Shown here: positions 2,561 through 46,961 of the stretch, piece after piece | Layout: each line of letters opens with the position of its first letter | Position numbering within the stretch: the stretch's first letter is position 1 | Source of the DNA: Marsupella aquatica | Taxonomy: Eukaryota > Plantae > Marchantiophyta | Assembly (NCBI GenBank): GCA_973895155.1 | Contig: OZ316895.1 | Location: forward strand, 19,730,803-19,794,802 | Length of the DNA stretch: 64,000 bases | Reading direction: 5' to 3' | Translations under genes and position numbers: made by a program | The notes under the pieces: generated by a model | What the model saw: only the letters and a program-made list of their open reading frames with translations | The model's database searches: none | Told to the model about the DNA's origin: nothing

Positions 2561-2982
2561 CTTAGTAGTTGATGAGGTCCCTGTAGGGGATATGCCTGTC
2601 GAAGAGAAGGTGTTGTTGTGAGAGAAATTACGTAAGGTTATGACTATAAATCCTAACAAGCCAATTTTTGTGAATGTCACAAGTTCTAACGATAATCTGG
2701 GTGTTGCGTTGGTGGATACAGGCGCGGCCGCCTGCTTCATGAGTGGCATCACCTTCGAGTAGTGTTTATGGCATGACCTTTGAGTAGTGTTTATGGCATG
2801 ACTTTTGGGTAGTGTTTGGCGCTCTGCTAACTTGGGTTGGAGCCAAGCAACCAACTCTTCTTGGTAACTACGAGATCGTGATAAGCAAGACTCGTTTCTG
2901 AAATTTCATTGAGCGAATTTTGGATGGACCCTAGCTAAGAAAACTGACGAGTCCATAATCCTTTGCATAGGTCTCCCCAAAA

Positions 2983-5900
2983 ATGTCACGGCGTACAATG
3001 TCCGAGAAGAGACATGTCGCACGAAGGGGTGCAATAAACACCTGTGCCGAGTCACTAAGTCTGTTATGTCAAGGATGGGCCTCAGCCCCATTGTATCTCC
3101 AAGAATGGAGAGAAGTCTGCCAAAAGACAATCCAAGGCATGAAGGTGTGCGGGATGTGCGGACTAGTTCGATACGGAAACACTCCGAGGATCGACAAGAC
3201 ATTCACCACCGTACCAAAGGTGAACATGACGCCGTACGGCATATGCAACGCATTTGTCAACCAGTACATTGAGAACCAAGATGGAACAATCAACGTGTGC
3301 ATGACTTGCGTGCGAAACCCCGCCCGTATCCAGATAAACTCCTTCATATCTCCGCAATATGCGATCGACATCCTAGCCGCGAAGCCGTTGTACATGCAAT
3401 TGCTCTCGCTAATCGACTGTCGACTAGGCATCATACAAAAGTACAATGGCTTCCACTCTGGCTTCTACAAAAAGGAAAGCCTCCTTGACAACCCGCTCAT
3501 ATCCTGGAATCTCGACACGCTAGAGTGCAATAATCGAGAGGAGATCATGCGACAGATATACAAAGTCATGGAACTCAATTTGACGACCAACCAACTTTTC
3601 AAAAGATACGTTTCATTGGTCGAACTACCAGACCCGTCACTGGGACTGTGCATCCTAAGTTCCGACGGAGTAGAGAACATCATCAAAGACAAGAGGGCAA
3701 AGGGAATAACCATGAGATCCATGAACTTTGACCCATTCGACCCCGACCTGCACATCCTCCAAGATGTGCATTACCGGATCCCGACTTCACACAAGCGCAA
3801 GTACCAGGTCTTTCGTTCCGGCACCGTGTACGACCGCAAGAGAATGTGCTCTGAAGAGAGCGTCAACACCGATGCGGAAGGACTGTCAAACAATCCACAA
3901 TTGACATTGGAAAATGCAATGTTCCCGTTCTTGTTCGTCCACTCGAGGGGTTTCCATCGAGGACAACTCAACTTGATCGACTACATGAAACGAAGGACAC
4001 AACAGTTGTTCAGCATATTCACTTTGTACAAGCCGTACATGCTTATCATGTACCAATTGCGACAGGCCAGCCAAGTAGCAAGCATGAGCAGGATGATAGT
4101 AATCGACAAGGAATACATGCAGATCAAGGAGAGGTGCCCCCACTTTAGCGAGAAGGAAATATACAAAATGCTGATAAAAAAGACAATCACGCAGGCCGTT
4201 CCTGGGAGCCCGGCGTGGCACGGAAGACACCTCGACGACCTCAAGTGCATGGTGAGAAAATGGGGACTGCCCCACTTCTTCCTCACGCTCACTTGTGACG
4301 AGATCAGCGACATCCGTTGGCCTGAGATCGCCGACCTCGAGAACATTGTGAAGAGGATGAATCCGACCTTCTCATGGAAAGATTGTCCTGTCGAATGCGC
4401 CGTGCTCTTCCACGAACGAATCCAACGTTTTTTCAAGGATTACATTTTATCGAAACGCGCCATAATTGGAAATGTGATCCACTACGTCATCAGGTATGAG
4501 TTGCAGGGCCGCGGATCACTCCATGCCCACACGGTACTATGGGTCAAGGATTGCGACGTCGATCGAGTCACAAACGAAATTGCCGCATTCATCCCTGACA
4601 GATTTGACTTGACATCCGGCAGATTCAAAGAGCCGAATGGACTTGAAGAAAAGACCCTGTATCGCAACGTGGTGACGAAACAACTTCACTACTACAAGGA
4701 GGGCTTGTGCTTGCAAAGGCATTCCCAAACCGGCCTCAAGTACTGCAAGTTGGGTTTCCCCCAAGAAACTCACCTCGACAAAGATGCAGCCATCGACCCC
4801 GCCACGGGGAAATGGAGGTACCACAGGCCAAGTGACCACCACCGAAACATCGTGCCATACCACCCGCTCGTGTTGCTGTTGTGGGGCGCGCACATGAACC
4901 TGTAGCGCGTCACAAACGCGGCTTGGTCATTCTATTTGCTCAAGTACGCAATCAAATGCGAGCCCCTAGGATCACTCCAGCTGAATGCGAACGATGCGCG
5001 CACTCTAGGACTCGAGGACCTGTCTGAAGTCCAACTCAAGCTTGTCAGCGGAGCCATCCTGTCTCGGAGCGTGTGCGCCACGGAGGCGGCCTTGATGTGC
5101 CTCAAAATCAGCATCATCCATCGCTCGAAGACTATGGCGTTCATGGACTCGTCGCCTCCGGAACTGAGGTCCGCCATCTACCGTAAGTCCTCGGGGATAT
5201 GTTTACATCCCACCAGACTCTACGCACAGAGGCCCGAGGACATGTTTGCAATGTCCTTCTACGACTACTTCATCAACCACGAGGTCCTCACCAATAAGAA
5301 AAGCACCACCAAAGACTACGTCGGCAGGGATTTGCAAGGCAATTTCGTGTATCGGACGGATCGGCTCGTGCAATTTTTGGAGTATCATCCAGTATACAAG
5401 ATGAATGGCTTCTTCTACAACTACCTCCTGAAGGTCGTGAGATTCCGTGCAGAAGGCGAGATTCTCCTCAGGCCCATAAGCGAGATGTGGAGCTACTTGC
5501 ACGAGTGCATACACCGCAAGTTGATAACCAGCGTCGACGACGTGCACAAGTTGGTGCTTGAATATTGCGCATCGCACCTCTACTCCACCCACCACACATC
5601 CCACCTGCTCCAGGAGCTGAACGAAAAGCTTCCCCACCAAATTTTCAACGACGCGGCCACATTCCAAGCGGTCCCCACCGTCGCCGTAGAGAAACCGATC
5701 GGTGCGGTGCTCAACGACAAAACTCTCCCTACCGTCAACTTGACTCTGGACCAAATTAGAGTGTTTGAGGCACTCAAGGATGTCAAGAGCGGTCTGTTCA
5801 TGATCGATGGAAATCCGGGATCCGGCAAGACTTTCTTCATCTCTTTCATGAACAAATACTGGACATATAAAGGGAGGAAGGTGAAGATGTGTGCCACCAT

Positions 5901-7107
5901 GGGCGCGGCTGCCATAAACCTTAACGCCGACGCGGTGACAATGCATTCCTTGTTCAGCATTCCAATACACGGAGAGCTCAGGCCTCTGCACATCACCAGT
6001 TCCCAATACCACACCTTGAGGAACAATGACGTGTTCGTCATAGACGAGGCGAGCATGCTGACACCCAAACTGTTGCGTTGCGTCTCCACAAGACTACACG
6101 AGACACTCCAAGACGAAGACCGCTCGTCCGACCCGTTCCAAAATAAGATGGTCATCCTGGTCGGAGACATGTGCCAATTGCCTCCGGTTTGCACCCACCA
6201 CTCCAACGACATATGCAGGTCATGCCACCTCTCGTCGTCGCCATATTTTGAGACCATGCGGAAATTTCACCTCAGCACTGTGCTCAGACAGAGCACAGAC
6301 CAGGAGTTCATGGAGTTCCTTAACAACATCCGCACAGGCCTCCCTACCCAAGAATCGATCGATGAGTGCCTGGGACGATGTTACGTGTCCAAAAAAGAAG
6401 CCCATGATTTCATCGACGCCTCGACGACCGTGATATGCACACATAGGGAAACAGTCGACAACTACAACGAACGGGCATTACGGAGATTTTTTCCACGCCA
6501 AGAGATCGTGCCCGTCCCAATACTCACCAATGCCCCTTCAGACGAATCCACCTGGCCTTGGATACAAGATCCCTCCTTCCACACACTGACGAACATTGCA
6601 ATCGGATGCAAGGTGATTCTCACACACAACATCAACCTCTCTAAGCAAGCCACGAACGGCAACGGAGGAATCGTGGAGAAAATCACTACAGAAGCCAAAG
6701 GCAAAATGTCAATTTTTGTGAGAATGTCTTCCAACCACTGCCTCGTAAAGATCAACCGCACGGTTCACGAGAACAAGTTCATCTCGGGACAGCAAACCCA
6801 TCGGAAATCCACTTTCCCTCTCATGCTCGGATACGCCATAACAGGTCACAAGAGCCAAGGTTGCCCACTAGCGGGCAAGGTAGTGCTAGAAATAAACAAT
6901 GCATTCACACCGGGACTGGTGTACGTTATGTTGAGTAGGGTCACAAATAGAGCATCCATGCGCATTGTTGGAGATCTTACGCCGCCGGACTTCAAAGTGT
7001 TCCACTTACCAATTCGTCGTGTTCAACAAGCAGATGTCGACCACCAAAGGCAACAAGGCAGCGAAGGCATCACAACAACAACGAGAAACGATGGCAGGCG
7101 CAAATAG
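2983..7107 (+). pseudogene. Helitron Rep (HUH endonuclease)-PIF1 helicase, ~1374 codons, one internal stop
   Basis: ORFs 2983..4905 and 4936..7107 share a frame and are separated only by TAG at 4903-4905 (HMNL*RVTNAAWSFYLLKYAIK). Rep motifs: FLTLTC, YELQGRGSLHAH, YLLKY. PIF1 motifs: GNPGSGKT, IDEASM, GDMCQLPPV, TGHKSQG, YVMLSRVT. Confidence 0.93.
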
Positions 7108-9108: not shown

Positions 9109-9765
9109 TTTTCACAAAAGATGTAGGTAAGGAAAAAGAAGTTGTGTTACCAAAAATGTCATTATGTAAAAGATGTTGTGAAATAAAAAAATATTGTGAA
9201 GAAAAAAAAAGTCATGTCACTAAAGATGTAGTGAAGTAAAAAGATATCATTCAAAAAGAAAAAGTCGTGTCGCCCAAAGATGTCAATGTGTAAAGGATGT
9301 CATCAAATTAAAAAATGTCATGGAATAAAAGATATCGGTATGTCAAAGATATTGTCATGTAAAAATAAATCATGTCCCAAAGATGTTATGGTCTATGCAT
9401 AATGGATGCTCTTATACTAAAGATTATACTAAAAATATTATGATGCAAATTATATCATTGAGTAAAAGATTTTTTTGTTAAGAATATCTCATTGTGCAAA
9501 AAATGTTATCAAATGAAAGATGTCATGCCTCAAAAAACTTGCGATAGCAACCACAAAGTACCTTTTATCTTTATATTTTTCATTTTCTTAATTCCATTTA
9601 CACCTTAAATTGCCAAAATCGTTCTTGCACCATTTGCTGGGTTTGGTTTAGAAGTCAATGGATTCCATAAAATGATTACAAAGTTTTCTTTCTTTTAAAC
9701 TAAAATTGTATACACATGCTTTAGACCTACAGCAGCGGCAACTGACTATAACCTTCTCCGTGCAG

Positions 9766-9954
9766 ATATGGCGGAAGGCTTTTATGACAAGTTAAAGGAT
9801 CTCCAGGGAAGGAACAACACCTACTATATTGGAGGCCTGCTAGCTTTCGAATTCACCGAGCGCAAATGCGGCATTTGCTCTAAACCTGGTCCGCGGCTGC
9901 TTCGCACCGATTGGAGATCATTCAGAAAAGGTGTCTTCGGCGCCATCTTCACAG
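9766..9954 (+). other. Exon encoding the C-terminal end of an FAD-dependent oxidoreductase (amine-oxidase fold / linoleate-isomerase-like) domain
   Basis: Acceptor CCGTGCAG|9766; translation DMAEGFYDKLKDLQGRNNTYYIGGLLAFEFTER(fs)NAAFALNLVRGCF; donor CAG|GTACGA at 9955. Confidence 0.7.
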
Positions 9955-10992
9955 GTACGAAATGATCATCCTAACGCGACAATAATTAGTTCACGATCAA
10001 TGTCAGGAAAGTACATTTGATTTTATTCTTATCTCGACTTGTCCCGAATTGGGCCATGACACTGGCAATCGGGTCATATGTGGGTTTTTCTGTCAACGGT
10101 AGACCCTTAAACGATGTCTTATATATGGTACTCAAGAATTCATAACGTGATTGTCATCTACAAGCCTTCCGGCGTTTCTGCTTTGTCCGTGGGTTTGCCC
10201 GTAGTTGCAACATAAGTGTCGATCGTTTGCTACGACTATGCACGTTCCCCTTCTGGTCGCCAATAGGGTCACTGCAGTAGGACTTACTAAAGCTTTTAAG
10301 GAATAATTTCAAGTGAGACCCCCGGTGAGACCAACTCACCAACGTCTCCACCAATTGTAGTGAGTGCGCATTTAGCAGTGAATTGATTTCCACTTCTCTC
10401 TCATGGAACTGAATCAACTTGAAAAAGGAAGCTAGGCAGAATTTTGTTTATTCACATCATGTGGCCCTCCTCTTATATGATGAATTGCCCAAACGAGGAA
10501 GGATCACATGTCGTTCGAGCTTCTACAGTGCACGCTCTCCCGTTCAGATGGAAATTGAAATACTTCTCAAATTGGAAGCCTGTTGAGATGACAACTTATA
10601 CCATACGAAGATGTAAAGAAACTTTTAACTTTGAACAATCCTGAATCAAAGATAAGTACATGCATGGAGAACTCGGGTTAAATCCAAGCATATAGATCTG
10701 AAGAGGATATTTCGTGCCAAACGGATGCGCTGTTAGATGCCATATCAAGAGCCTTCACATGTGTCAACAAGAGGTTTCCCTGATAAACAAGCAACCGGCC
10801 GATATGATGTGACTCTGCTGCAATCTACGGTAGCACCGGTCAATGCAGTCCCCTAAACTGAAGTCGCCGTAACCGAAAAAAGCTTTGACAAGGATGATTA
10901 GGTGAAAACATAACAGGAATCTGAACAACAACCCACTTTGGAATAATGTGTCAAGACTGTCAAAGCTCAGATGTTCCTTAATTGGTCTGTTC

Positions 10993-11131
10993 ACTTCTGC
11001 CCCACTTGCTCAATAGGATTCAACGGTCGAGACACTGGTCATGTAAGGGTTCAATTAGCAAACTTCTGCCCCACTTGCTCAATAGGGTTCAACGGTCGAG
11101 ACACTGGTCACGTAAAGTGTTTCAATTAGCA
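10993..11131. repeat. 69 bp intronic tandem duplication
   Basis: ACTTCTGCCCCACTTGCTCAATAGG occurs at 10993 and 11062. Confidence 0.85.
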
Positions 11132-12386
11132 AGAAGCTGGAGCGGTGCTTATTGAGATCTTAGAAATAATGTCCTGTCCCAAATCTCTGATTTAAAGTCT
11201 CGTTGTTTCTCGTTGTTTGGATGCAGCATCGTCTGAGGATTCAAACATTGATGCCTGAACAAGCGGACCTGGACGAGCATTTCCGCGCTGCACAGTACGC
11301 CATCAAGGAAACGACCGAAATCTTGGGAGTATCATTCCCGACACTGCCGTCTATTAATGCGTACTTGTCCTTCTACGGTTCGCACAAGGTACTGAAAGAT
11401 CGCAAGGTTTACAAATGGGTGAACGATCAAGGACACGAGTCCGACACTCTAAACTACGCTGAACTGGACTCGCGCACCTCCACCGTTGCTGAGCGGCTTA
11501 TGACAGGAAAAAATGCCTTGAAGCCTGGAGATCGGGTTCTGATGCTGTACCCGCCGGGGCTCGAATTCATTGAAGCATTCTTCGGCTGCTTGCGAGCGCG
11601 CGTAAGTTACATTACCTAGTTCCCCTGCACAAGCTACCCGACAGTGCTTCGATCTAATTGCGACCATCACAGTCATGCTTGGAGGGACCTACCCTAGATC
11701 GATGACACCGCCATGAATGGACATACAGAAGTTTAGGTTCATGGATATGATGTGCTTTGCATGGATTTTAGAATTAAATATTACTACAGTAGAAGTACAC
11801 GAATCCCAGTACGTGTTGCCTTGTATGTCCATTAAATAAATATGGCTACAGTAGTTAAATCTAAGTATGCTCGTGGTGAAAAGCTGTTATCTAGATTTCT
11901 GGAATGTGCACAAGACCCTTACATTTAATTGAACGAAATTCTGACCTTCTTCAAAGTCAGCGCTAATACTATATTGATCTTCACCCTCACGTGGACCAGA
12001 GATTGTCTGTCTTGGGATCAGAATGGCAGAAATGTGTAAGTTTTTGGTCTGAAATGTGTGAAACGGGGGAGAAATTATTGTCTGTAACGTTGTCGACAGG
12101 GTGCAAATAACTGGTTTGTGGATATATTGGTTCTGAGAATTCATGATCGTATCTGCAGGTTTTGCCAGTGCCAGTAATTCCTCCCAATCCCCTGAAACCA
12201 TACGACCAGGCTCTGTTCAAAGTGGCGAGCGTAACCAAGGCATCTGGAGCGAAGGTTATTCTCAGTACGTCATCATATCATAATGTAGTTCGCGCAGCAT
12301 CTTTGCGTACTGCTGTATTAGGCCAAAAGGCTCCTCCGAAAAAGAATGCAGGTCCAGCTGGGCCTCCTCCACAATGGCCCAATACT

Positions 12387-12698
12387 TATGACATGCAATC
12401 TGGTGACACAGAAAAGAATGAACAATCCCTGCCTCAACAAAGAGGGGAAACAATATTATATAGTACCCCGAAAGGGAGGCAGTAAAACAAACCACCACTT
12501 GGCCAGCAAGAAACCAGCGGTGGAACAAGACGTGGAACAAGGCGCTGCAACTGAACGATCATGCTAAGATCAAAACAGGAGTCAGAGCAGGAGAAGGTCC
12601 CGCCAAACTAAACTCTGATGTGATAGCTGTACTAAACAAACTCTGATGTGATAGCAGTCAGCCGATGGAAAAGAACAGGCGTCAAGTGACTCCTGACA
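12387..12698 (-). repeat. 3' LTR (312 bp) of Copia element 1
   Basis: Differs from the 5' LTR by 6 transitions and 1 indel (manual count). Termini read TG...TA on the minus strand. Confidence 0.95.
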
Positions 12699-15600
12699 CA
12701 CCCCCCTCATCGGCTGTATACTCGGGAATAGTCGACAGTGAAACAGTGGAAGTAGAAACGGAAGGCGCTAATTGCAGACCCAGAAGAGAAACTAACTTGG
12801 CAAAACGAAGTCCAGAGAGAGGTTTGGTCAAACCATCTGCCGGCATCTCTTGAGTGGACAAATACTTAAGAACAACAGTGCCTAATTTGACATGCTCACG
12901 AATAAAATGAAAAGGAATGTCGATATGTTTGGTCCGTGAGTGATGCTCCGGATTAAGAGTGAGAGCCAAAGCAGGCTGATTATCGCCATATAACAACACT
13001 TGGTGAATGTCTGAAGAAGAACAACGTAATTCCAGAAGGAGACGTCGCAACCATAAGGCCTCTTTACATGCTAAAGAGTAAGCAATGTATTCCGCTTCGG
13101 TGGACGATGTGGCAACAACTGGCTGCTTGCGTGATTTCCAGGAGATGGGGCCGCCACCGAGTTTAAACAAATAACCGGAGGTGGACTTACGATCAGACAC
13201 GTTGTCTCCGTAGGACGAATCTGAGTATCCATGAAATCCTAAAGAATGAATTTCCAGTCCAACAAAATTGGTGCGTTTGAAGTAGAGGCCAAGAGTTGGA
13301 GTAGCCCGAAGATAAGAAAAAACGCGACGAAGTGAGCTTTCGTGCTCGGGAGCAGGGCAATGGGCGAATTGGCTAAGTCGGGAACATCTTTCAGCAATGT
13401 CTGGCCGTGTCCAGTTAGCAAGATACATTAAAGAGCCTAGCATGGCCTGATAATAGTGCTGTTGCTCAGGAGAGGGTTGGGAGCGAGCAACGGGAAACAC
13501 GTCTATGCCTGTGGAAGGAGAAGTGACAGGTAGGCAAGATTGGAGATGAAAACGTTCGAGAATTTTTTCTGTATATGCAGTCTGAGATAGATAGAGAGCA
13601 CGATGTGGTCAATCACGAATGATGGAAAGACCAAGATATTCAGATAAGTCCCCTAGATCTCTAATGGCATAACGGGAGGAGAGAAGCTGATGAATGTCTT
13701 GGATGCGAGCAGTGGTGGGAGCAATCCCAATAATGTCGTCAACCCAGAGAACGAGCAAATCCCCAGATGAATGTTGTAATACACAAGGATCGGATGGAAG
13801 AGGATGATACCCATGAGAGAGAAGAAAAGTGGTGAGTTCTTGGTACCAAAGGCGAGGAGCCTGTTTTAACCCGTAGAGTGCCCGAAGTAATAACCAGACC
13901 AAAAGATTCCCCTGAGCATCGTAAGTCTCATAGCCAGGCGGAGGGCGAACAAAAAGACGCACACCATCTTGTATTAGAGCATTGAGAAAAGCAGTGACTA
14001 TATCCCATGAATGAGCCTCCAAATCATGGATGGCAAGAAGAGCCATAAGGACACGAAAAGTCTCAGGTCTGACAACTGAGGCAAAAGTGTCGTGGTAATC
14101 TTCACCCGGACGTTGTTTATCCCCGCGTACCACAAAACGTGCCTTCTAAAGCCCGGTGCGTTTGATATTGTAAACCCATTTCGAGGGGAGAAGATGAGCT
14201 CCGGCAGGCAAAGGAACGAGTTGTGCAACATGCAGTAGATGAAGTTGATGTAGCTCAGTCTGCTCTGCTGCACGCCATTGAGCAGCTTCAGGGCGGCCCA
14301 TGGCTTCTTTATGGGAGCGAGGTAGATTGGAAACAGAAGTGGCATATAGAGCAGTACAGAAAGAGTAAAGCAGTGAGGACGGTATAGTAGACAGGAGAGT
14401 TTGTAGACGCCCGCCAGAGAAGTCACTGTCGTCAAAATGAAGAGCAGGAACCCCCCAATTTTTGCGAGCAGAACGTCGAACAAAATCCTGGTAGCCATGA
14501 TCATGCTGCACAGGAGAAGAAGCCCCAGCCATGTCTGCCTCAAGCTCATAGTTGGAATGGTGTCCTAATGGTGGTGTAATGATGATAGGAGGAGTGGTCG
14601 GATGAGTAGGAGTGAGCGGAGAAAATGGCAAAGCAGGCAATTCGGTCGGAAAAACAAGAGACATAGGGTCAAGAACGGGAGGAAGAAAAAGTGGAATGTC
14701 ACTAGAGGAAGAAGAGTTGGTAGTACGGGGAGAGTCAAAATAAACCCGCCCTTCGTCAAAAGAGACATAGGAGGAGCAAGAAATAGAATTGGTATCAGGA
14801 AACCAAATACGGTATGTCAATCCATCAGAATAGCCAACCAAAAAACCCTGGCGGGCCCTGGCAATGAATTTGGCACCACGTTGACGTTTTTCAGGGACGA
14901 TGTGGATATATGCAATACAGCCAAAAACGCGAAGATGAGAAAATTTAAATGAATAGGGAAGAGAAAAATATTGATGGAGATGAGTAGCGGGAGCTTCCTG
15001 CTGAGGATTGGAAGTAGTGGGAGAATTATTGGTCAAGAAAATAGCTGTGCGGACTGCCTCTGGCCAAAGACGTTGAGGGAGATGAGAATCAAGAAGTAGT
15101 GATCGGGCGCGTTGATTGATAACCCCAATGGATCGTTCGGCTACTCCATTTTCCTCATGATGATAAGGAGCCCTGTTGATGATCCGACAGCCTTTTTCAG
15201 CAAGAAAGTGTAGAAGAAGATTTCCACCAAATTCCAGGCCATTGTCAAGATGTATGGTTGAAATAAGAGATTGGTACTGTGCTAAAACAGCAGCAAAAAA
15301 CTGTTTAATGATGAGAAAAGCCGTCCCCTTGGAGGAGAGAAAAGAGACCCATCGATGACGTGAGTAATCGTCGGTGAAGAGGACAAAGTAGTTGGAATTC
15401 CCGAAACCAATTGGCGAGATTTTACCACAGAGATCAACATGGACCTTCTGGAATGGAGCGGTAGAGCGCTGATGAGGAACCCGACAAATAGATTTTGTAG
15501 ATTTGCTGAGAGCGCAGACTGTACACAGGGGCAAACTATTGGAACCATGGATGTCCACATGGTATTTCGCTGCAAGAGTCTTGACAGCATCGACATTGAG

Positions 15601-16995
15601 ATGAGCAAGACGACGATGCAAAAGAGATAAGTCAATCTTGGAAACAGGCAAAATATGTGCGTAGAGGTGACCATCGGTTGGTGGAACAGAAGTTTGAACC
15701 TTGAAAATACGTAAGTCCTGAGCAGAATTGATGCACGCAAATTCAATGCCAGAAGATAGGTGTACAAATTTTGAAAGTTCCCCCCGATAATGTACGCCCA
15801 GTTTCTCCAGAAGTCGCTCAGAAATAGTGTTAATGCAACTGGCCGGAGTAAAACGCACGTGATCAAGACAAATGGCATGATAAGTGCCATTAGATCTTTG
15901 TAAAGCAAGATGGACCGTTCCCCATCCCGGAGAAATCATAGGACCATTCCCAGTGTTGAGTTGTAGTGGAGATTCGTGATAGTCAGAAAAGAGATCACGA
16001 GAAGTGCAGCAGTGATGAGTGGCGCCTGAGTCAGCAATCCATAGATGAGAATCACGAGAAGCAATAGACGAATGTAGATAAGAACCGCAATGGAAAAAAT
16101 TGGTAGTAGTGAGGCCATCTGGAACAGGTGAATCTGGAACGGAGACCAAAGGGGTCAGCTGAGAAGCTGGCGAAAGAGAAGATTTATCGAGGAGACGCTG
16201 TTGAAGTGCTGGATTTGGTAGCCAGCCCCCGCGACGAAGATGAGGAAACTTGTAGAAACAACGTTCCTCCCGATGACGAGGAAGATTGCAATAGGAGCAA
16301 ATGTGCCGAGCCGGAGAGCGAGGAGTCGAGGTAGAGGACTGAACGGGAATTGCAACCTGAAGAATTGCAAGTTCAGCAGAGTCAAGAACAACTCGACTTT
16401 CTTCCCGAACTTCAAGCATAAGTGTATCCAGCGATGGCAGCTTCTTTGGATCCTGGCGGAGCTGTTCACGTTTATGAGAAGCCCAAGATGGCAAGTGGGA
16501 TTCCAAAACGTGAATAAATTGGAACACCTAGATACGATCCGGGATGTCCAACTTCAGAGAAATACAGCGATCCAAAGCAGCCTGGTACTGTGCACAGAAA
16601 TCCTCAACATCGGTGCCTTTGTAGCGCAAATTATTAAAAGAGGACCAGATATCATAGATGAATAAGCCCGCTTTGCTCATATGAAGAGGCAAGTTTGGTC
16701 CAACAGAGTTGAGCAGTGCTCACGATTTCAAGAATATCTTGAATATGAGGACGACAACTTCCAATAATTGCAGTGCGAGCAGAAGCAGCATGAGCTTTAA
16801 AAATCCGGATACGTTCAAGAAACATATAGTCCTTCTCGTCAATGTGCTTAACTGGAGAAACAGCATTGCCGTCAACGTGATCCCAAATGCCACCCGATTG
16901 GGCAACCGGCACAGATGCCGCCAACTCTTGAAATTGGGAGATCCTTCGAGTTTAGGAATAAACTGAACGTTCACGTACGACGAGGAACTCATCAT
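12682..16995 (-). pseudogene. Copia gag-pol (gag zinc knuckle, protease, integrase, RT, RNase H)
   Basis: Motifs: CSYCNLPRHREERC, WIADSGATHH, HRRLAH...CTVC, DNGLEF...ENGVAER, LYGLKQAP, WVDD, TRPDI, ADGLTK. There is a frameshift near 16920 and stops at 16652, 14146 and 13609. Confidence 0.95.
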
Positions 16996-17087
16996 AGAGA
17001 AAACTTGAACAGAAAAACGGAACAGAATGAGCAGAGAGAATAATTCTGTGACGGAATGGTTACAACATCAGATAAAGGCCCATAACC

Positions 17088-17400
17088 TATGACATGCAAT
17101 CTGGTGATACAAAAAAGAATGAACAATCCCTGCCTCAACAAAGAGGGGAAACAATATCATATAGTACCCCGAAAGGGAGGCAGTAAAACAAACCACCACT
17201 TGGCCAGCAAGAAGCCAGCGGGTGGAACAAGATGTGGAACAAGGCGCTGCAACTGAACGATCATGCTAAGATCAAAACAGGAGTCAGAGCAGGAGAAGGT
17301 CCCGCCAAACTAAACTCTGATGTGATAGCTGTACTAAACAAACTCTGATGTGATAGCAGTCAGCCGATGGAAAAGAACAGGCGTCAAGTGACTCCTAACA
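17088..17400 (-). repeat. 5' LTR (313 bp) of Copia element 1
   Basis: Near-identical to 12387-12698 and directly followed by the PBS on the minus strand. Confidence 0.95.
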
Positions 17401-19104
17401 ATACTCCATGGCTGCACACTGATTCGTGGACCAGGGTGGCATGATCAAAGACGGTCTTCTGGCCTGGGCTGCTAGCAAGAGAATGAGTGCAGCAAAGAAG
17501 GAAAGAATTGTAGACTTCTATAATCAGACTTCGACGAATGAAATTAAGGCGAAAATGAGAAACGACCCTGACCTGAATTCACACGAATCTCCAATCATCG
17601 AGGAATTATCGATATCGGATGCATTTGATGATCCGGCAGGCCCCCTCGATGAGTGGGTGCGCACAAGTGGCGCTGCAGAACCAAAGCGATCAGACTTGTG
17701 TTTTTTGCAGTTCACCTCGGGATCCACTGGAGATCCGAAGGGAGTAATGATCACACATGGAGCGCTCCTTCACAATATACTTTGCATGAAAAAGGCGTAC
17801 AGAGGCAATTCAAGCACGGTGACTATCTCCTGGCTGCCCCAGTACCATGATATGGGACTGATCGGTGCAATTTTGACCCCTTTGGTGTGTGGAAGTTGTG
17901 CGGTTCTGTTCTCGCCTCATACCTTCATTCGGAAACCCCTCATGTGGTTGGAGCTGATTGAACGCTACGAAGGCACTCACACACCTGGTCCCAACTTCGC
18001 TTTCGAGCTCGTTGTCAAACGGTACGAGAGTTTGAGATGTAAACCATCTACCGCAGGAAAGCAACACAAGAAGTATGATCTGTCATCCATCCGCTTTTTT
18101 ATGTCTGGTGCGGAGCCCATACGGGCTGGTACGTTGCAGACCTTCTCCGGTTGTTCCACAACTCTGGAATAAGAGAAAGCATGATGGCCATGGCCTACGG
18201 ACTGGCGGAAAATTGTGTTTTCGTCGCCTGTTCGTATGGAGAAAGCAAACCTCTGCTCACGGATTGGGACGGAAGAGTTTGCGTGGGGTATACTCGTCCC
18301 GGAGACCCTCATCAGGATGTGCGAATCGTCAATGTGGACACCTGCGAAGAACAGCCTGAAGGAGTGGAAGGGGAGCTCTGGGTGTGCAGCCCGAGTAATG
18401 GGGCGGGTTATTGGGGTCTAGAGGAGTTGAGCAAGAAAACTTTCGCGAACAGATTATCGAATTCGTCAGACGGGAAGAGATTTCTTCGAACGGGTGATCT
18501 CGGAAGAGTGATTAAGGGGCACATTTTCATCACTGATCGAATGAAGGACCTCGTCATCATCCAAGGCCGGAACATCTATCCTTCAGACATTGAGAGAACT
18601 CTCGAGAACTGCTCCAATGACGTCCGACCGGGTTGCTCTGCTGCATTCAGCGTACCTCTGAAAGTTCTGAAGTCGAAGGGGATCGTGCAGTACCTGAACT
18701 CGAGTGAGCAAGACGATAACCTATTCGACGCGTGCGTTGTTGTTGTGGCTGAAATTCGAGATGAAAAGAACGTCAATGCTGCTCCAGAGCTTGTCTCGAG
18801 CATTAAGTCAGCTGTGGCAAGTGAGCACGGAATCAACATTGCGTATGTAGAAATCATCAAGCCCCGCAGCATTCCCAAGACGACTTCAGGAAAAATCCGG
18901 AGACTCGAGTGCCTCAAGCGATTTTCGGAGGGGACACTTCATTCAATACAGCTCCCTGATATAAAGTCAGGATCCAAAATCCGTTCCCGTCGCAAGGTGA
19001 AAAACGATATAATGTCACGGAAAAGGGTCAGGTCCTATGAGACCTGCTCGACTTCAAACTTGCACCACATGGTTGAATCTAGGAATGCAGGCTCTCCCCC
19101 GACT

Positions 19105-19645
19105 AGAGGACATAGAGATATTCTTGATCGAGACGCTTGCAGAACGGACTAGGCTGAAGAAGGCAGAGATCAGTGTGGTTGAAAATTTCAGCAATTATGC
19201 GAATTCGGTGGTCATGACATGGGTGGCTTCAAAGCTCTCGGAGTTTTTGCATGTTCACGTACCTCCAATGCAATTGTATACTAGCAGCTCCATCTCAGAG
19301 ATTGCAGACTGGTCATTTAAAATCCTGTTCAGCAACTCGAAGGAAACCCGAGAGACGACAACAAGTTCAGGCATATCCTCTCCTCCGCATGAACGGCAAG
19401 ATAGCCAGGGACAGATGAAGAGCAGGAATGCCTTGTTAGAATTTCTTGTTGGGCTGGTGGCGACGAAGATCAGCGTATCTACTGCCAAAATTTCTGTGAA
19501 AGAAAGCTTGAGTGACTACAGCTTGACCTCCTTAGACTCGGTGTGGATGGCACAAGAAATCTCCGACTACCTCGGAGTGCACATCCCTACTCTCCAACTG
19601 TACAGTGCAAGCTGCATCGAGGAGCTTGCGGAAACCTGCTTGGCC
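19105..19645 (+). other. Two tandem acyl-carrier (phosphopantetheine-binding) domains
   Basis: EDIEIFLIETLAERT...NYANSVVMTWVASKLSEFL...LYTSSSISEIA and LLEFLVGLVATKI...DYSLTSLDSVWMAQEISDYL...LYSASCIEELA are mutually similar ACP-like units. Confidence 0.8.
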
Positions 19646-19842
19646 CTCTCACACTCCGCAGGACCGAATTTGACGGAGACCTCACATCATGCTGGCAGGC
19701 AAAGTGAGTGTGACCTATCTCCTGCGTTGACCAGCCAAGCAATCAGTGAAAATTTTGAAATCGAGCTGATATCGGACAAAGAATTGGCATCCGCTTTAGA
19801 GCCGTCCAAATTACGGCAGTTCTCATCACCGGACTGCAAGTC

Positions 19843-21560
19843 TTGGGATTGCTGTTCATAGCTGCGCAGCTTCTGATGCCGGTGGCCATGATATACGGCC
19901 GTCTTCTAAGTTTAGTTTCGGCTCAACAGTGGCGCATCCTTCGCACATTCGTCGCTGTAGCTTTGGTTCCCGCTGCGTGGATGTTGTACATCGCGGTAGT
20001 AGGATTGACAATCTGTACGATCGGATGCACAATTTTGAAACCCAACTATGCCTTGCAATCGGCCATTCCCCTGTGGTCGACGAGATATGTCCGATGGTGG
20101 AGCCTCTACCGCTTGCAGGATTTTGCCTCGAAATCCCTGGCGGTGCACTTACGTGGAACAATTTTGCTCGTGTGGTGGTACCGCCTCATGGGAGCCCAAA
20201 TTGGTGACAGCGTGCACATGGATACCACAGATATCACAGACCCATCGCTCCTCTACATCGGTAATGGCACTATCGTCGAAGAGGACGCAACACTGCAGAG
20301 CCACGACGTAAGAGATGGAGCAGTGCGTTTCGACTCAATCAGGATTGGTAGCAGATGCGTCGTTGGGCCCTTCTCCGTAATCCAGCGGGGCACGACCATG
20401 GAAGCAGGATCCAGGATTGAGACTCTCTGCAATACCCATCCGGGACAGCTTTTGCAACCGCCACGAAAATCGAATCCAGAGGTCCGTCTCAACTGACCTA
20501 AGTTGCAAATTTTTGGTGCATGATCACTGAAGTACATACTGGCATGATTGCGGTAGCGATACAATTTGTCAATGAATCACGCGCCAGAATCCGTTGTTGA
20601 CGAACAATGTGTGTGAGCCCTCACAGTCACACTTCCAGCACAGGGATTGACAGACATGAACTATAACCCTTTCCCCGTACTCTGACGGCAGGTGGCTTCG
20701 ACGAGAGGAGCTCCTTGGTCCCTCGTGCTGCTGCAGATATGTGGAGTATATCTGCAAGGACTCATCTCGACTGTCTCTGCAGTGCTGGCTTACGCAGTGT
20801 TCCAGAGCTTCGGGCCAACATTTGTGAGCACAGCAGCCGAATCCTCGAAAATTTCCAAGAAATCGAAGCTGAGGCTTGTTTACTCTTTCCTCTAGCATTG
20901 ACCTTTCCCTGGGCACTCATTATTGTGGCACCGATAACGCTCTTCTCTCGGCACGACCCTGCTCTAGTCTTCGAGATGATGGTGGGCTTGAATAGCCAGC
21001 TTCCAGCACTGCTACTGGGCTTGAGCACTTCCTTCGTCGCGTACGGCATAATTCTGGGAGCCCTCACATCCACCCTGAAGTGGTATCTCATAGGTAATCC
21101 GAGGAGTTTCACCAGTAATGGTCATCAGCGACCCGTTGACAGAATCCCATTCACCACGTTGGCAGTTCACGGACTCCTGCGATCAGCCCATCTGAAGTTC
21201 TTCGTGTTGCTCCCGGGCACCGAGGCTTTGTGCATGTATCTTCGGAGTCTTGGCGCGAACATTGGCCGCGCCGTGTCCATACGAAGAGTGAATGCACTTG
21301 TAGACCCCGAGTTTCTCAGCTTAGGAGACAACTGTCATCTGGGCGATTTCTCCAAAATCGTCACAACAAGAATCACGCATGCAACAGGAGCACTGCAAAT
21401 GATTTCAAATGTTGTTCTTGTGGGCGAAGGTTGTGTTGTGGGAGCACAAAGCGTGGTTCTTCCAGGGGTGATAATGGGCGGTGGCTCTGTCCTGGGAGCC
21501 ATGTCTGTGGCTCGAGATACGATGCTTCTGCAAGGGGGAGGCGTGTATGTGGGAGGTAGA
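19843..21560 (+). other. Two [transmembrane pair + left-handed beta-helix/hexapeptide] modules
   Basis: Hydrophobic helices are followed by WYRLMGAQIGDSVHMDT...IGSRCVVGPFSVI, and again by YLRSLGANIGRAVSI...VGEGCVVGAQSVVLPG. Confidence 0.82.
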
Positions 21561-21699
21561 GATGGCAGTGCCACTGTCATGATTTCTAGGCTGCCAACTT
21601 CAGTGGATCTGCGAATAGAAGAAATGGATAGGACTTACAGACAAATCGTGGGCAAGTTCGTGACTGATATTGCCAGGAGCACCGTCACGTCTGCTGCGA

Positions 21700-22890
21700 A
21701 TGGCAAAGGAGTTCGCTACTTCCATCAAGCTGGCGTGGCTGGCCGAGGCACTCTCCGAGTGCTGGACAATCTACAGGGTCTTCCCGGGAATCTTATCATG
21801 TGGTAATTCGTCATGGTAACGCCCTGAGTGGCGCTGACGAGAGGTGCCCTGATGTAAAAGGGGCAGCGCTGCGAATCTTGAGCCCCAATTGTTCGGAGGA
21901 TGTTGAGATCTCACTGCTGGACTTGGTAATGAAGACAGGGGAATGCTTCCATGCTCGCAACGTGCTCGATTTGATGACGTGGGAGGCCAAGTCATACAAA
22001 GCCCGAGAGGAGTATGTGCAACAGAACCCACTAGTTGGACAGAGCTTGTGGAGACAGATCAGAAAAACTGACTCGTATGCCGAGCTGCACTACTACAGCG
22101 TCCTCGCTCGGGTATTCCAGAGCAGGAGCAACTCTAAGCTCTCGGACTCTTACTCAAGTACAACCGAAGATGATTGCTTTGTAAAGTTTCGTCTCTGTCC
22201 TAATGATCGGACCAAATTTGATGGGAGTCATGGATCAGTGATTGCTTCTGGTCCCCTCCCTCCTCCTCGAGGGTATCTTCCTGCCTCTCCAGGTAATTAT
22301 GTAATCAATTCAAAAAGGCCTTGCAGAAGCATCGTATCTGGAGCCATCAATCTTGTAATGATGCTTAAGATCGACAAGAGAAGGAGAGTCCATATTCTAT
22401 TCTAATTAACAAGCCAATACAGTACGCAGAGGAGGAGTGACTAAAGTTCATGTCAAATATTTTAATAATGAAGGAATTGGATTGTTAAGTCCCCAGGTTG
22501 TTGACTCCCAATGCATTTGACTGGCAGGTGACAAGCGTTCTACAGACTTCCTACGAACGGAATTCAAGCAAAGGATGCAAAATGGGGAAGGTGCTAAGTA
22601 CATTCTGCAGCTGCAAAGGCACCGGATACCCGGGTCCACGGACGAAGTGAACCAGGTGCTGGATGCCCTAGTTGCTTGGGATGAAGAGGAGTGTCCCTTC
22701 ATCGACATCGCAGAGCTGACCTTAAACATGGAGATAGCCGAAGAAGTAGCTGAGAACATGACATTCAACTCGAGACACGGGGGCCCGAGCGTTGCCGTGG
22801 TGGCAGCCAACAGCGCTACTGACAGTGCCTCCCTCGATCATTGTCGTTCAGTTGTTTATGACATTGCCTCGACCATACGCAAGGGCTTGC
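21700..22890 (+). other. Catalase-like heme domain (catalase-related allene oxide synthase/hydroperoxide lyase type)
   Basis: Distal-His region RYFHQAGVAGRG; VIRHGN..D..PDVKGAALRI; YYS; VKFRL; proximal R-x3-Y motif RSVVY. Intron at 22293-22527. Confidence 0.8.
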
Positions 22891-23050
22891 CCCTTCCTGG
22901 CGCTTGGCGAGACCTTGTGAGAGTTGAGGACTTGGACCTGGATTCCAAAGTACCAAGTGAGAACTCAGGGCCGGCACGAGGATGCCCAGTGATGTCACCA
23001 TTTATTAAGGAACAAGATCAAACACCGAGCAGCAACATCGCATCACAGGT

Positions 23051-23706
23051 TTGAGATTAGAGATGGCCGTCATGAAAGGGGTACAATCGCTTCTGCAGGC
23101 TGCTATACCAGTGGTGCTTCTAGCTTTATCAGCTTACCCTTGTATCCTGGCCATGTCCTACATAGCCTCAAAGGCAGGTCCCGACGGGTGGATAACGATG
23201 TTCTTCATGCTTCCAGTGGCATTCGCAACCGTAGGGGTTGTGTTGGCAATGCTGAGCGTCTGTTGTAGATGGCTTCTCTTGGGACGGAGTGAAGGGGGAG
23301 CAACTACTCAGCTCTGGAGCTGGCACACTCTAAGCTTTACGATTTGGGAGGCCATCATTGAGGTGCTCAAAGGCACATTTCTAGAGCTAGCAAGGGGGAC
23401 CCTACTCTACAATGCGTTTTTGAAGTGTTGGGGGCTTCTATTGGAATCGGCGTGTATATCGACAGTCTGAATGTCCTCAACCCGGACCAGCTGCGCATCG
23501 GAGCAGGAAGCGCAGTGGGGCGCAATGCTCTCTTCTTCGGCCACCTTTAGGAGAGACAAAGGATCTTCTACAAGTCCAACACCATTGGCGAATTCTCCAC
23601 TGTTGGCACTCATGCACTCATGCTTCCTGGGTCGCAAATGCAGGACGGCAGCGAATTGGGAGCTCTTCAGTTGGGCATGAAAGACGAAGTTATTGCATAC
23701 TATTAA
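23051..23706 (+). other. Third TM + hexapeptide module, C-terminus of the megasynthase
   Basis: TM helices, then (frameshift) GASIGIGVYIDSLNVLNPDQLRIGAGSAVGRNALFFGH...GSELGALQLGMKDEV. Confidence 0.8.
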
Positions 23707-23949
23707 TGCTACCCTCGCTATCAGAATCGTCTCTACTCCACTGCCGACCAAGTCATTACAGCTATCGTTCAAGATCAGAAGTTAATAGTATCTCCCTCAT
23801 GGGAACCTTGCCGGAACTCGAGCATGGCTGGTCAGGTCTTATAGTACTGGTCTTCTAGCAGTGTGCTACTCTCACTGTCTTATAGGAGTGTGCTACTCTC
23901 ACTGTAGTGTCTAAATTGTTTGTTTAGTTGCCTTTCCCCTTCCCGGGGC

Positions 23950-26022: not shown

Positions 26023-27010
26023 ATGCCTTCGTCTAACAAAATACGCCGCAGCGCATGTCTCACCTCAAGGTCCTGGCGATGCCCGCCCGACCGCTCTCCA
26101 GATAGTCAAGGATGAAGACGTCATCGGCAAGCTCACAGGCTAGACCTTCCTTGTAACTGGATGTAGCGTTGTCTCCGCGACAGGAGCACGGCTTGACTTA
26201 CCGGTCCGGGACCTGGCTACTGCGAACAGCACACTTGCTGACATCCTCGAGCCCGGGCGTGTCGAGCTGCTCGAAATGCATTTGGCTTCCTCAGCTAGTG
26301 TTCGACAGTGCGCTGAAGAGTTACTCCTGAAAGCGCAAGAAAGACACCATGGCCTCAACGTTCCAATTTTGCAACGCAGGCGTAATGGCCTCCAAACCCT
26401 GACGAGAACAGGCGATGGATTTGAAATCCAATTCGGAACGAATCACCTAGGCCATTTCCTTCTATTCAACCTCCTCAAAGACGCCCTCTTTACCTCCTCA
26501 ACGCCCGAGTTCAACTCCAGAGGGTTGATGCGCTCCTCCTCCGGCCATCGAAATGGTGGGTTCCGCTTACACGACCTCTTCTACGAGGAGAATTCGTACT
26601 CTCCATGGAGTGCAAACGCCCCGGCATACGCACAATCGAAGACGGCAAACATGATCTACATGACATTGAGCGACATTTTGGGCGCGAAGGGATCCACGCC
26701 AACGCCCTGATGCCAGGCGGGATCTGGACGCCGTTGCAGAAACAGTGGGACTAAGAATCGCTTTCGAAGCTGAAAGCAGATGTGGAAATTAACAAAGGCG
26801 TGAAAAGTACTGAACAGGGGCTGCGACGACCGTATGGGAGGCGGTGGCGAAGGAGTGGGAGGGCAAGGGGGGCTGCTATCTCGATAATTGTCAGCTGGCG
26901 GAGTTGGTGGTCGATGCGAAACGTTTAGAGCCGGGATTTGTAAAGCATGCTTTTGACGAAGACGCGGAGGAGAGGCTGTGGGTGGAGAGTGATTAATTGG
27001 TAGGGTTGTA
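26023..27010 (+). pseudogene. Intronless short-chain dehydrogenase/reductase (WWOX/retinol-dehydrogenase-like), degenerate
   Basis: KYAAAHVSPQGPGDARPTALQIVKDE..GKLTG*TFLVTGCS; DGFEIQFGTNHLGHFLLFNLL; SSSGHR; catalytic YAQSK; QGAATTVW-like; RLW. Several frameshifts and stops. Confidence 0.88.
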
Positions 27011-29691: not shown

Positions 29692-30510
29692 CTAAGCTGC
29701 TAAAGAAACCACTCCAAAGACAAAGCTACTTATGTCAATCAAGGTGGTTAACATTCTGGCAGCCGTCTTAAACTGGTCGTTCGCGAACAGACGCTTCATG
29801 GCAGCCACGATTCTGTCAATGATAGACGTTGCCATTTCCCCTAGCTCAGGGTCGCTCATGTCCGCTATCTTTGGAACAACTAATTTATAATCCCTCTCTC
29901 GAAAGAGATTTTCCAGATCTTCTTCGAGTTTTGGTATTGATTCTTTCCTGATTTCTACATGCCTGCCTCCTATAACTCCTGTCCTAAGGGGAGGTATGTT
30001 AGTCACCAAAACTGGGAGTCCTGGAGTCCTCATATATAGTGGCAGGCTGTTCCTTTCTTTGTCTAGCCATTGTTCGTCTGCACAGGTAAAGAGAACAACA
30101 AAGCCTGCTTCGGCACCCTCAAAAATGTTGACAAATATTTCCCAGATCATCTCGTCGATTGTGGTGATCCGGCCTTTCTTGATTACATATATGATGTGGG
30201 AGTATTCATTCTGGACGCTCTTCAGAAAATTTGTCAACATGACCTTCGGATCCATATTCTTGATGCTTCCCGCTTCTGCTTCACCAAGCCCAACCGTGTC
30301 TACAACTGTCCAACCCCTTCCCGCATCTATCTGGATTTTACGAGTACACCCATTCGCGCCGTCGCTGGATTTGAAGACTGACGTCTCCAGGCCTCCTGTA
30401 ACAAGAACATTGGCAACAGTAGACTTTCCAGAACCGGTTTTCCCAAACAGCAACACTTTCTTCTTGTGAGGCTCGTTCGAAGACGAGGTGGCGCACGAAG
30501 CCTCCGCCAT
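29692..30510 (-). CDS. AIG1/GIMAP-like P-loop GTPase, 272 aa, single coding exon, hydrophobic C-tail
   Basis: G1 GKTGSGKS, G2 GCT, G3 VVDTVG, GRIT box, G4-like VLFTCAD. The ORF is intact. Confidence 0.85.
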   Translation of the reverse strand: MAEASCATSSSNEPHKKKVLLFGKTGSGKSTVANVLVTGGLETSVFKSSDGANGCTRKIQIDAGRGWTVVDTVGLGEAEAGSIKNMDPKVMLTNFLKSVQNEYSHIIYVIKKGRITTIDEMIWEIFVNIFEGAEAGFVVLFTCADEQWLDKERNSLPLYMRTPGLPVLVTNIPPLRTGVIGGRHVEIRKESIPKLEEDLENLFRERDYKLVVPKIADMSDPELGEMATSIIDRIVAAMKRLFANDQFKTAARMLTTLIDISSFVFGVVSLAA

Positions 30511-30657
30511 CCTCCCGATGTGGTCCTGACACAGGTGTGACTGTGAAGGAGCGCCACCTGTGAATCCTTTGACAAAATCTAGTGAGGAAGAAGAATTTCT
30601 GCCAACGAATGTCAGGGTTTCTCGAGAGGGAAGAATCAGTCAGTTGGACGGCGCTAG

Positions 30658-46100: not shown

Positions 46101-46961
46101 CACTTTTTCTTGGAAAAGCGTGAAACAGACCCTAACAGCAACCTCATCGAATCACTCAGAAATCTTAGCTCTACATGAGGCTAGTCGTGAAGCCGTTTGG
46201 TTACGATCCTTTATAAATCACATCAACACCAAATGCGGCCTACCACCACTAACGAAGCCTACTAACATCTTTGAGGATAACGCAGCATGTATACAGCAGA
46301 TCACGAAAGGATTCATCAAAGGCGATCGCGTGAAGCATATAGCTCCAAAGTTTTTCTACACCCACGAGTTACACGGAAAAGAGATCAACATTTTGCAGAT
46401 TTCAAGTGCAGACAACTGTGCGGATCTCTTCACCAAATCACTATCGCCATCAGTTCACCACTGACACTGCCAGGCGATTGGACTGTGGAGCGTGCGACGC
46501 ATGATGACCGTGGAGGCTGCTACTCCACATGACGATTGATGCTGCTGATGACATGATGTTGGCGACCTACTGTTGAGACAAATATTAAAGCTAGATTTAC
46601 TATAGCATCTGACTTTATTTAATATTGACATTTATTACGACGAGGACTGTTAGGCTGCACTCTTTTTCCTTTAGCACTCATATTTTTTCTCCGCTACACT
46701 GGTAGAGTTTTTACTAAGCTAGAGTTGATAAAGGTTTTTTAACGAGACAGTCTACCTCGCTTGTACTTATATCATGTATTTTCTATGAACATGATATAAT
46801 TAGTATAGTCTATGTTGTCTATATAGTTGTCACTATATATCCAAAGGGGAGTGTTAGACTCTACCTCTGACCGGACGATCGGACCAGCCGGTCATCCAAC
46901 CACCCTATATGTACTCACATTCCTGACTATACACGGACTCATTCACATTCATTCCATGATA
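40113..46961 (+). mobile_element. Full-length Ty1/Copia retrotransposon, Bianca lineage (degenerate)
   Basis: 110-bp LTRs at 40113-40222 and 46852-46961 (TG...TA, 4 C/T differences). TSD GTCAC at 40108-12 and 46962-66; PBS region CGTTATCAGCACG; PPT AAAGGGGAG. Bianca-type gag start MTNLEKLTFPALEI and RNase H KGDRVKHIAPKFFYTHEL. Confidence 0.95.
41857..46530 (+). pseudogene. Bianca gag-pol with stops and frameshifts
   Basis: Zinc knuckle CHECGMTNHLARNC; protease IIDSAT; HARLGHPG; integrase DNAGEF; RT LYGLKQSGR and YVDD; TRPDI; ADLFTK. Stops at ~42141, 45201, 45903 and 46464. Confidence 0.93.

Follow-up and report, generated by a model that had tools for sequence, protein, structure and literature searches.

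A dead allele in the liverwort Marsupella aquatica and the land-plant family of candidate membrane-bound lipid assembly lines to which it belongs

Which enzyme is encoded by a plant gene that joins a flavin enzyme, a fatty acyl-AMP ligase (FAAL), acyl carrier proteins (ACPs), three membrane modules and a heme domain, and can it still be made? This question is raised by positions 9766–23706 (forward strand) of a 64,000-nucleotide stretch of contig OZ316895.1 of Marsupella aquatica (assembly GCA_973895155.1), here called the window. The original prediction, made from the letters of the window, had read this region as one gene of the order FAD enzyme, FAAL, ACP, ACP and three modules of transmembrane (TM) helices and left-handed beta-helix, with an embedded heme domain. 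Domain searches and tblastn, in which 8/8 homologues tried were colinear with the region, bear this out: it is a single multidomain gene with all of these domains in that order. The copy in the window is a dead allele, i.e. a pseudogene that is unable to make the protein, of a family that is real and was already known, but unexplained. The intact plant protein has, in our judgement, an even chance of being a membrane lipid assembly line, in which an ACP-tethered polyunsaturated fatty acid (PUFA) is isomerised, oxidised by the heme domain without a lipoxygenase (LOX) and passed to an acceptor. Apart from fatty-acid synthesis, plants are not known to be a source of carrier-protein assembly lines. 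The gene is laid out as follows, with intron boundaries taken from the flanking sequence.

9766–9954 (+): exon, tail (last ~60 residues) of an FAD domain like the PUFA isomerase PAI; tblastn 52–76% to residues ~380–450 of most homologues
9955–11226 (+): intron 1, GT-AG, phase 0 (sequence)
11227–11601 (+): exon, start of the FAAL domain; Pfam AMP-binding E 9e-10, ~50% to homologues
11602–12158 (+): intron 2, GT-AG, phase 0 (sequence)
12159–12386 (+): part of an exon, FAAL with proline-rich loop, interrupted by a retrotransposon; homologue alignment
12387–17400 (-): copia retrotransposon in the FAAL exon, long terminal repeats (LTRs) at about 12387–12698 and 17088–17400
17406–18960 (+): remaining FAAL domain with SGSTG loop, WLPQYHDM, FAAL-specific helix and KTTSGK; Pfam, NCBIfam, alignment
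19106–19650 (+): two ACP domains; Pfam PP-binding, two stretches
19822–20481 (+): module 1, TM pair and left-handed beta-helix; TIGR02353 E 2e-26, AlphaFold of a homologue
20482–20691 (+): intron 3, GT-AG, phase 0 (sequence)
20692–21600 (+): module 2, TM pair and beta-helix; TIGR02353 E 9e-15, Hexapep
21612–22943 (+): catalase-related heme domain with distal Phe-His, Asn replaced by Lys and proximal RxxxY; coral structure match in the PDB, residue alignment
22293–22527 (+): intron 4, GT-AG, phase 1, inside the heme domain (sequence)
23012–23706 (+): module 3, TM pair and beta-helix with conserved His and MKDE motif; homologue alignment, TIGR02353
23704–23706 (+): natural stop codon (sequence)

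The Pfam matches in the window follow in the order AMP-binding, PP-binding (two stretches within 19013–19858), hexapeptide repeats and a faint catalase match. FAAL models of NCBIfam rank first or nearly so for the adenylation pieces, and TIGR02353, the terminal-domain model of Pls (epsilon-poly-lysine synthetase) and PosA, matches three stretches (E 2e-26, 9e-15 and 2e-4), so that the predicted FAAL, ACPs and triple Pls-type module were all recovered. By motif comparison both ACPs retain the attachment serine, and the aspartate before it is altered to Asn and Thr, respectively. Of the FAD domain only the tail is present: a hidden Markov model (HMM) of the plant FAD domain, run over the six frames of the window, has its sole match at 9766–9954, and neither this model nor tblastn found the first ~380–415 residues anywhere in the 64 kb. 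The acceptor AG at 9764–9765 means that further exons must have preceded, none of them within the window. Since only ~60 FAD residues remain and a Helitron occupies the upstream positions 2971–7104, the missing exons may lie beyond the window or may have been lost. The Rep/PIF1 helicase frame of this Helitron (forward strand) has one stop and no frameshift, and the element may sit in the intron that divides off the missing exons.

The reading frame of the gene is broken by nine frameshifts (at about 9864, 17433, 18146, 19105, 19820, 20848, 21792, 23010 and 23435), by a nonsense TAG at 23548–23550 and by the exonic copia element. It had been proposed that about a dozen fragments are joined by GT-AG introns; four phase-keeping introns remain of this, whereas the other joins turned out to be the frameshifts and the retrotransposon. 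The proposed excision of 12387–17405 was correct, as the target site duplication ATACT stands at 12382–12386 and 17401–17405 and the LTRs are paired (306 matches, 6 transitions and 2 gap columns, ~2% apart). The element has a single reading frame of 4.4 kb, which contains four internal stops and is free of frameshifts. That the breaks are errors of the long-read assembly and that the gene is active in the M. aquatica genome has next to no chance of being true. Most of the frameshifts do fall in short homopolymers, but the 4.4-kb copia frame is free of frameshifts, a coding exon is interrupted by a 5-kb element, and short-read contigs agree letter for letter: a contig of run X1, possibly of the same sample, equals 17367–23900 with no difference over 6,534 bases, and ungapped contigs of run X3, from a separate study, have the breaks at 18146, 19820, 20848, 21792, 23010 and 23435 and the TAG stop in common with the window. 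Assembly error is thus refuted for 17367–23900, which is the part covered by the read-based confirmation; the frameshift at 9864 lies outside it.

In run X3 the copia site is empty, which, together with its seven breaks, suggests that the death of the gene preceded the insertion. Kin haplotypes from the runs X3, X4 and X5 are in frame at 17433, 19105, 19819 and 20847 and carry a 25-nt segment at 21792, where the frameshift of the window is a deletion of this size (size from run X4). In two X5 contigs the frame would be kept at 18146 and 23435 as well, to judge by gap counts alone. Run X4 has loose ends at GATC, which were disregarded as probable proximity-ligation joints. An intron hidden at 17436–17528 was considered and dropped, as X3 and X4 keep the frame at 17433. 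Synonymous changes make up 28 of the 56 listed coding differences against an expected 24–29% (p about 1e-4), an excess which argues that purifying selection acted on the lineage until a short time ago; the 56 are the best-supported subset, next to 77 and 108 rows outside it. The locus is an ordinary, recently dead allele, and its main use is that of a natural knock-out alongside less-broken kin haplotypes. Two short segments are also matched by contigs from elsewhere in the same runs: 18577–18633, where the matching sequence looks like another adenylation gene, and 20616–20677, a short intronic repeat that is missing from some haplotypes.

Homologue searches found intact single chains of 2,170–2,610 amino acids in Marchantia paleacea, Riccia, Calypogeia, Selaginella, Cryptomeria, Cichorium and Eucalyptus, in which the domains are fused and not distributed over separate genes. 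In the intact layout, an FAD domain, a FAAL and one or two ACPs are followed by three Pls-type TM/beta-helix modules, and a heme domain like the allene oxide synthase (AOS) of corals lies between modules 2 and 3. Judged from its sequences, the family is conserved from liverworts up to the angiosperms; the named homologue matches included no moss protein. The window sequence falls within the plant clade with support 100 in both the FAAL and the heme-domain tree. In the latter it is sister to the liverworts (support 89), whereas the FAAL tree leaves it at the base of the plants with its branching not settled. Patil et al. (2021; PMC8460268) had already noted, as uncharacterised, a plant FAAL with a ‘HemY’ domain on one side and a catalase domain on the other, and in PMC12820801 FAAL clusters of plants are classed as non-ribosomal peptide synthetase (NRPS)-like. 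With their FAAL flanked by FAD and catalase-like domains these uncharacterised proteins belong to the same family, so that the architecture is not entirely new, while no product has been assigned in the literature searched. Neither the triple module of Pls type nor the kinship to PAI and AOS nor a bacterial cassette appears in the accessible text of the two papers, and the copy in the window differs in being a pseudogene. New here are the PAI-type instead of HemY-type FAD domain, the AOS and Pls reading, the link of the heme domain to a bacterial cassette and the active-site switches. Neither a functional study of the plant family nor any description of this cassette was found in the literature searched, which covered few subscription journals. 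The ‘NRPS-like enzyme’ of a moss horizontal gene transfer table (PMC3493653) points to AT4G18540 and was not linked to the FAD-FAAL family. A family that persists from liverworts to eudicots has no product assigned in the searched literature.

The cassette, of the layout FAAL-catalase-FAD-ACP-release, came to light in a HMMER scan with the Cryptomeria heme domain, which gave 366 matches, of which the best 150 were listed; among these, the nearest non-plant matches are multidomain proteins. Of 29 long non-plant proteins picked by hand from the 150, 28 have the FAD domain, 27 an ACP, 15 a FAAL and 14 a thioesterase (TE), and others end in an acyltransferase, reductase or hydrolase or carry a P450. 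Named members come from Archangium and cyanobacteria, and the genera overall are Archangium, Lentzea, Amycolatopsis and Coleofasciculus. In most cassette proteins the heme domain directly neighbours the FAD domain. Against the plant FAD domain, those of the cassette reach scores of up to 207 bits, compared to 94 bits for PAI, the latter with a different query and database. A gene-context scan with an Archangium-type protein yielded 27 genome loci, 17 of which have FAAL and FAD together and 11 of these the heme domain as well. At 7/7 actinomycete loci with the heme domain, and at 3/6 loci without it, a ketosynthase (KS)/FabA gene of PUFA-synthase type lies directly ahead, ‘PUFA synthase’ being the name we presume for a KS-acyltransferase (AT)-2xFabA gene. 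The actinomycete clusters (L005–L011, L023, L025) consist of this gene, a stand-alone FAAL and then (heme)-FAD-ACP-TE-P450, and L006 has two copies. The P450 was considered as a CYP74-type enzyme, which was rejected, as its PDB matches are those of an ordinary CYP107-like enzyme. Cassette and plant protein share the same four domain types, the cassette heme and FAD domains are the nearest ones outside plants, and 21 of the 40 cassette heme domains have the Phe-His pair of the plants. However, the order of the domains differs from that in plants, the FAALs form a separate clade, and the cassette ends in soluble release domains (TE, reductase, acyltransferase, hydrolase, P450) where plants carry the Pls-type module. 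The fatty-acyl substrate assumed for the gene in the window is now backed by this gene context. As the cassette provides a soluble, easily expressed proxy and a guess at a PUFA substrate, the question becomes directly testable. In the Archangium-type proteins (L001, 5968–12897; L004, 5995–12837; P0039, P0046, P0062) there is a further domain of ~500 residues with no Pfam match at the cut-off used; its DxDT-like motif may be reminiscent of class II terpene cyclases.

The adenylating domain of the plant proteins is by sequence a FAAL and not an amino-acid adenylation domain, which was rejected since FAAL models outrank TIGR01733 and the latter stays below its cut-off. Aligned to solved FAALs, it has the FAAL-specific helix, bulky W/M/F residues in the CoA pocket and the proline-lined alternative pocket, and the motifs WLPQYHDM, SPHTFIRKP, PNFAF and PVIPP correspond, with EcFAAL numbering transferred by motif match only. 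These features define CoA-rejecting FAALs according to the part of PMC8460268 that is available. The window copy, Selaginella and Cryptomeria have ACPs in tandem.

For the FAD domain, residues 18–450 of a plant homologue align with residues 3–423 of PAI from Propionibacterium acnes (2b9w) over the full length (E 4e-26), and PAI is the only FAD enzyme found at E<1e-10 with the plant query. With a bacterial FAD domain as query PAI is again best (4e-36), followed by a match at 1e-13. The label HemY or protoporphyrinogen oxidase was therefore rejected: the latter (1sez) matches the dinucleotide-binding start only (E 4e-6) and is not among the plant-query matches at E<1e-10, whereas PAI matches over its full length. 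The PAI-like domain that had been suspected from the short tail in the window is thus seen in full in the homologue. PAI is the best structural relative by sequence, but it stands alone, whereas the plant domain is fused to FAAL-ACP and the window retains the tail only.

For the catalase-like pieces of the window, coral AOS (1u5u and 3dy5) gives the sole significant PDB matches (E 1e-5 and 9e-12). An AlphaFold model of the C-terminal half of the Eucalyptus protein (32-row alignment; pLDDT 84, pTM 0.66) contains a heme domain that superposes on coral AOS with Z 36.2 (2.8 A, 321 residues), followed by a mycobacterial catalase-related protein (Z 26.4) and true catalase (24.6). These matches bear on the idea that the FAD domain acts as an oxidase or a dehydrogenase, whose H2O2 is used or removed by the heme domain as a peroxygenase or simple catalase. 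We consider this improbable. Pfam does name the FAD domain Amino_oxidase, both domains are neighbours in most cassette proteins, and true catalases, likewise, are not known to have the threonine discussed below; but PAI beats amine oxidases by more than 20 orders of magnitude, the heme domain is structurally closer to AOS than to catalase, and it is missing at 6/17 of the FAAL and FAD loci.

The window heme domain retains Arg64/102/360, the distal His and the proximal RxxxY in common with coral AOS, whose active site comprises Thr66, His67, Asn137 and Tyr353 (PMC5617202, as far as accessible). All 13 plant heme domains keep the distal His and Arg349. However, Thr66 is replaced in all of them (Phe in 8, Ile in 5), Asn137 is Lys in 13/13, and the proximal Tyr353 is Tyr in 8/13 and His (RxxxH) in 5/13, the latter being all five liverwort domains (P0001, P0021, P0022, P0023 and P0024), which may thus be His-ligated catalase-fold enzymes. 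Among the cassette domains (n=40), Phe occurs 21 times and Thr 5 times at the Thr66 position, and Tyr is present in 40/40; of the remaining 78 rows, from neither plants nor cassettes, 68 have Thr or Ser and 68 Asn. The Thr-His pair is said, in the title of a 2016 review, to be the hallmark of the hydroperoxide reaction. By these alignments the plant heme domain is a member of the AOS-type clade yet lacks its hydroperoxide hallmark, and it would be the plant representative of this catalase clade with an unusual active site. Moreover, coral AOS is fused to a LOX, whereas the plant heme domain is fused to FAAL and ACP, and no LOX domain was found in the plant proteins scanned. Since Thr66 and Asn137 are absent from 13/13 plant sequences and the proximal Tyr has become His in five liverwort ones, classical AOS or hydroperoxide lyase (HPL) chemistry is doubtful, so that of the original claim the catalase-related fold stands while the chemistry is weakened.

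It is accordingly unlikely, though still worth serious consideration, that a separate plant LOX provides a fatty-acid hydroperoxide which the heme domain rearranges or cleaves on the ACP. Coral AOS is the closest structure, the window keeps the heme arginines, the distal His and RxxxY, and the cyanobacterial catalase-LOX fusion P0050 falls in the same heme clade as plants and cassette. Also in favour, the cassette proteins with Thr-His or Ala-His are those with an extra NTF2-like domain of the ketosteroid isomerase and epoxide hydrolase fold. The absence of the Thr-His hallmark, of Asn137 and of a LOX domain from the plant proteins speaks against it. The NTF2-like domain lies between heme and FAD domains in ten cassette proteins, all Thr-His or Ala-His (P0064, P0049, P0059, P0061, P0067, P0075, P0082, P0094, P0150 and P0055), and its model (pLDDT 90) has Foldseek matches to dehydratases, ketosteroid isomerase and epoxide hydrolases; Phe-His cassette proteins, like the plants, have no such spacer. 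Among further cassette heme domains, those of P0065, P0069, P0077, P0079, P0086 and P0088 align without the distal His while RxxxY is kept, and P0036 has two heme domains in tandem.

The membrane part of the Eucalyptus model consists of three units, each made of two long helices and a left-handed beta-helix; the catalase fold separates the second unit from the third, and the beta-helix part reaches Z 13–15 to sugar acetyltransferases. The three tandem C domains with six TM helices are thus present, as seen in the three TIGR02353 stretches and in the model. From the order of the chain, the heme domain would lie on the side of the membrane where the ACP is. A catalytic role of the conserved module 3 His would follow from the chemistry of beta-helix acyltransferases; this residue and the motif MK[G/D]E are common to 12/12 plant and 5/5 non-plant Pls-type sequences. 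No solved Pls C-terminal domain was among the matches at E<1e-60. The accessible part of PMC10522769 describes a PosA model with three beta-helices packed like sugar acyltransferases, in the same layout as in Eucalyptus. As in Pls and PosA, adenylation domain, carrier and three TM-pair/beta-helix modules follow each other without a condensation or TE domain. Unlike these, the plant protein has a FAAL for the amino-acid adenylation domain, an FAD domain in front and a 350-residue heme domain between modules 2 and 3, and TIGR02353 stays under its cut-off of 423, with 225, 188, 130 and 152 bits in four plant-type homologues compared to 690 for the bacterial control P0029. The module could iterate like epsilon-poly-lysine synthetase and build from oxidised (hydroxy) fatty acids an estolide or a polyester of the wall, which would be exported across the membrane. 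This we regard as quite unlikely: the three-module layout, the module 3 His and MK[G/D]E are common to Pls-type proteins, Pls C domains are reported to form amides iteratively (PMC4668381, in its accessible part), and the tandem ACPs would fit; but the TIGR02353 scores reach about half of the cut-off (225 and 188) and the non-plant cassette relatives terminate in single-turnover release domains.

Where did the parts come from? In a FastTree tree of 131 heme domains, the 13 plant rows (support 100) are nested in a clade of 63 rows (support 99) that holds all 40 cassette rows. The FAAL tree, a quick IQ-TREE run with midpoint root, biased sampling and a long branch, places the plant FAAL beside a protist protein in which a FAAL is coupled to a Pls-type module. 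Since heme and FAD side with the cassette while the FAAL groups elsewhere, the plant protein looks like a mosaic, with heme and FAD from a bacterial-type cassette and FAAL and Pls-type module probably from another line. The protist proteins P0013 and P0196, with a Pls-type triple module joined to a FAAL, have the nearest non-plant FAALs in this quick tree; P0196 has in addition a second adenylation domain, an ACP and part of a condensation domain.

Taken together, the parts of the intact plant enzyme match a bacterial cassette that often lies beside a likely PUFA synthase, and therefore the enzyme would probably load, rearrange, oxidise and hand on a fatty acid. In the proposed order of steps, which we infer, the FAAL would adenylate a PUFA and load it onto the ACP. 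On the tethered chain, the PAI-like FAD domain would move the double bonds so that they become conjugated, and the heme domain would carry out an oxidation that needs no LOX; finally, the Pls-type membrane module would release the acyl group by transfer to an amine or hydroxyl acceptor. PUFAs as substrate class are suggested by the PUFA-synthase-type neighbours and the homology to PAI, LOX-free oxidation by the loss of Thr66 and Asn137 and the lack of a fused LOX, and the release role of the Pls-type module by the TE, reductase, acyltransferase or hydrolase that non-plant relatives have at this place. Several points weigh against this assembly line. The plant FAAL groups with eukaryotic or unnamed FAALs, apart from those of the cassette, which makes the substrate argument from bacterial context indirect. 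No PUFA-synthase-type gene was found within the fetched flank of four Archangium loci, and 6 of the 17 FAAL and FAD loci do without the heme domain. PAI is described as acting on linoleic acid, and no account of PAI or relatives accepting ACP thioesters was found in the literature searched. Furthermore, Asn137 is reported as non-essential for catalysis of coral AOS (PMC5617202), so that its loss proves little, and the FAAL-specific insertion of the plant proteins falls well short of its length in most of the bacterial FAALs aligned; the available part of PMC8460268 calls this insertion poorly conserved.

As a more far-reaching and tentative proposal, land plants could possess a so far unrecognised, LOX-independent oxylipin pathway within one NRPS-like membrane protein derived from a bacterial PUFA-tailoring cassette. 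Here the PAI-like isomerase would provide a conjugated acyl-ACP, the catalase-fold heme enzyme, by means of a new active site (Phe-His/Lys, with His ligation in liverworts), would oxygenate it, and the Pls-type domain would conjugate or polymerise and export the product, while the cassette behind the PUFA synthases would represent an undescribed natural-product class. A loose precedent for consecutive FAD and heme steps is the ergot pair EasE and EasC, which is an analogy only: the substrate is an alkaloid, the proteins are separate and the flavoprotein is of the BBE type, and the EasC fold matches with Z 23. In this pair an FAD enzyme is followed by a catalase-fold enzyme in oxidative tailoring (PMC9811125, in the part available).

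Three further features lie downstream in the window.

26144–26754 (+): frameshifted remnant, by eye like a short-chain dehydrogenase, with no Pfam match at E<0.001
29695–30639 (-): open reading frame with an AIG1-type GTPase domain
42770–46461 (+): second copia-type element, broken

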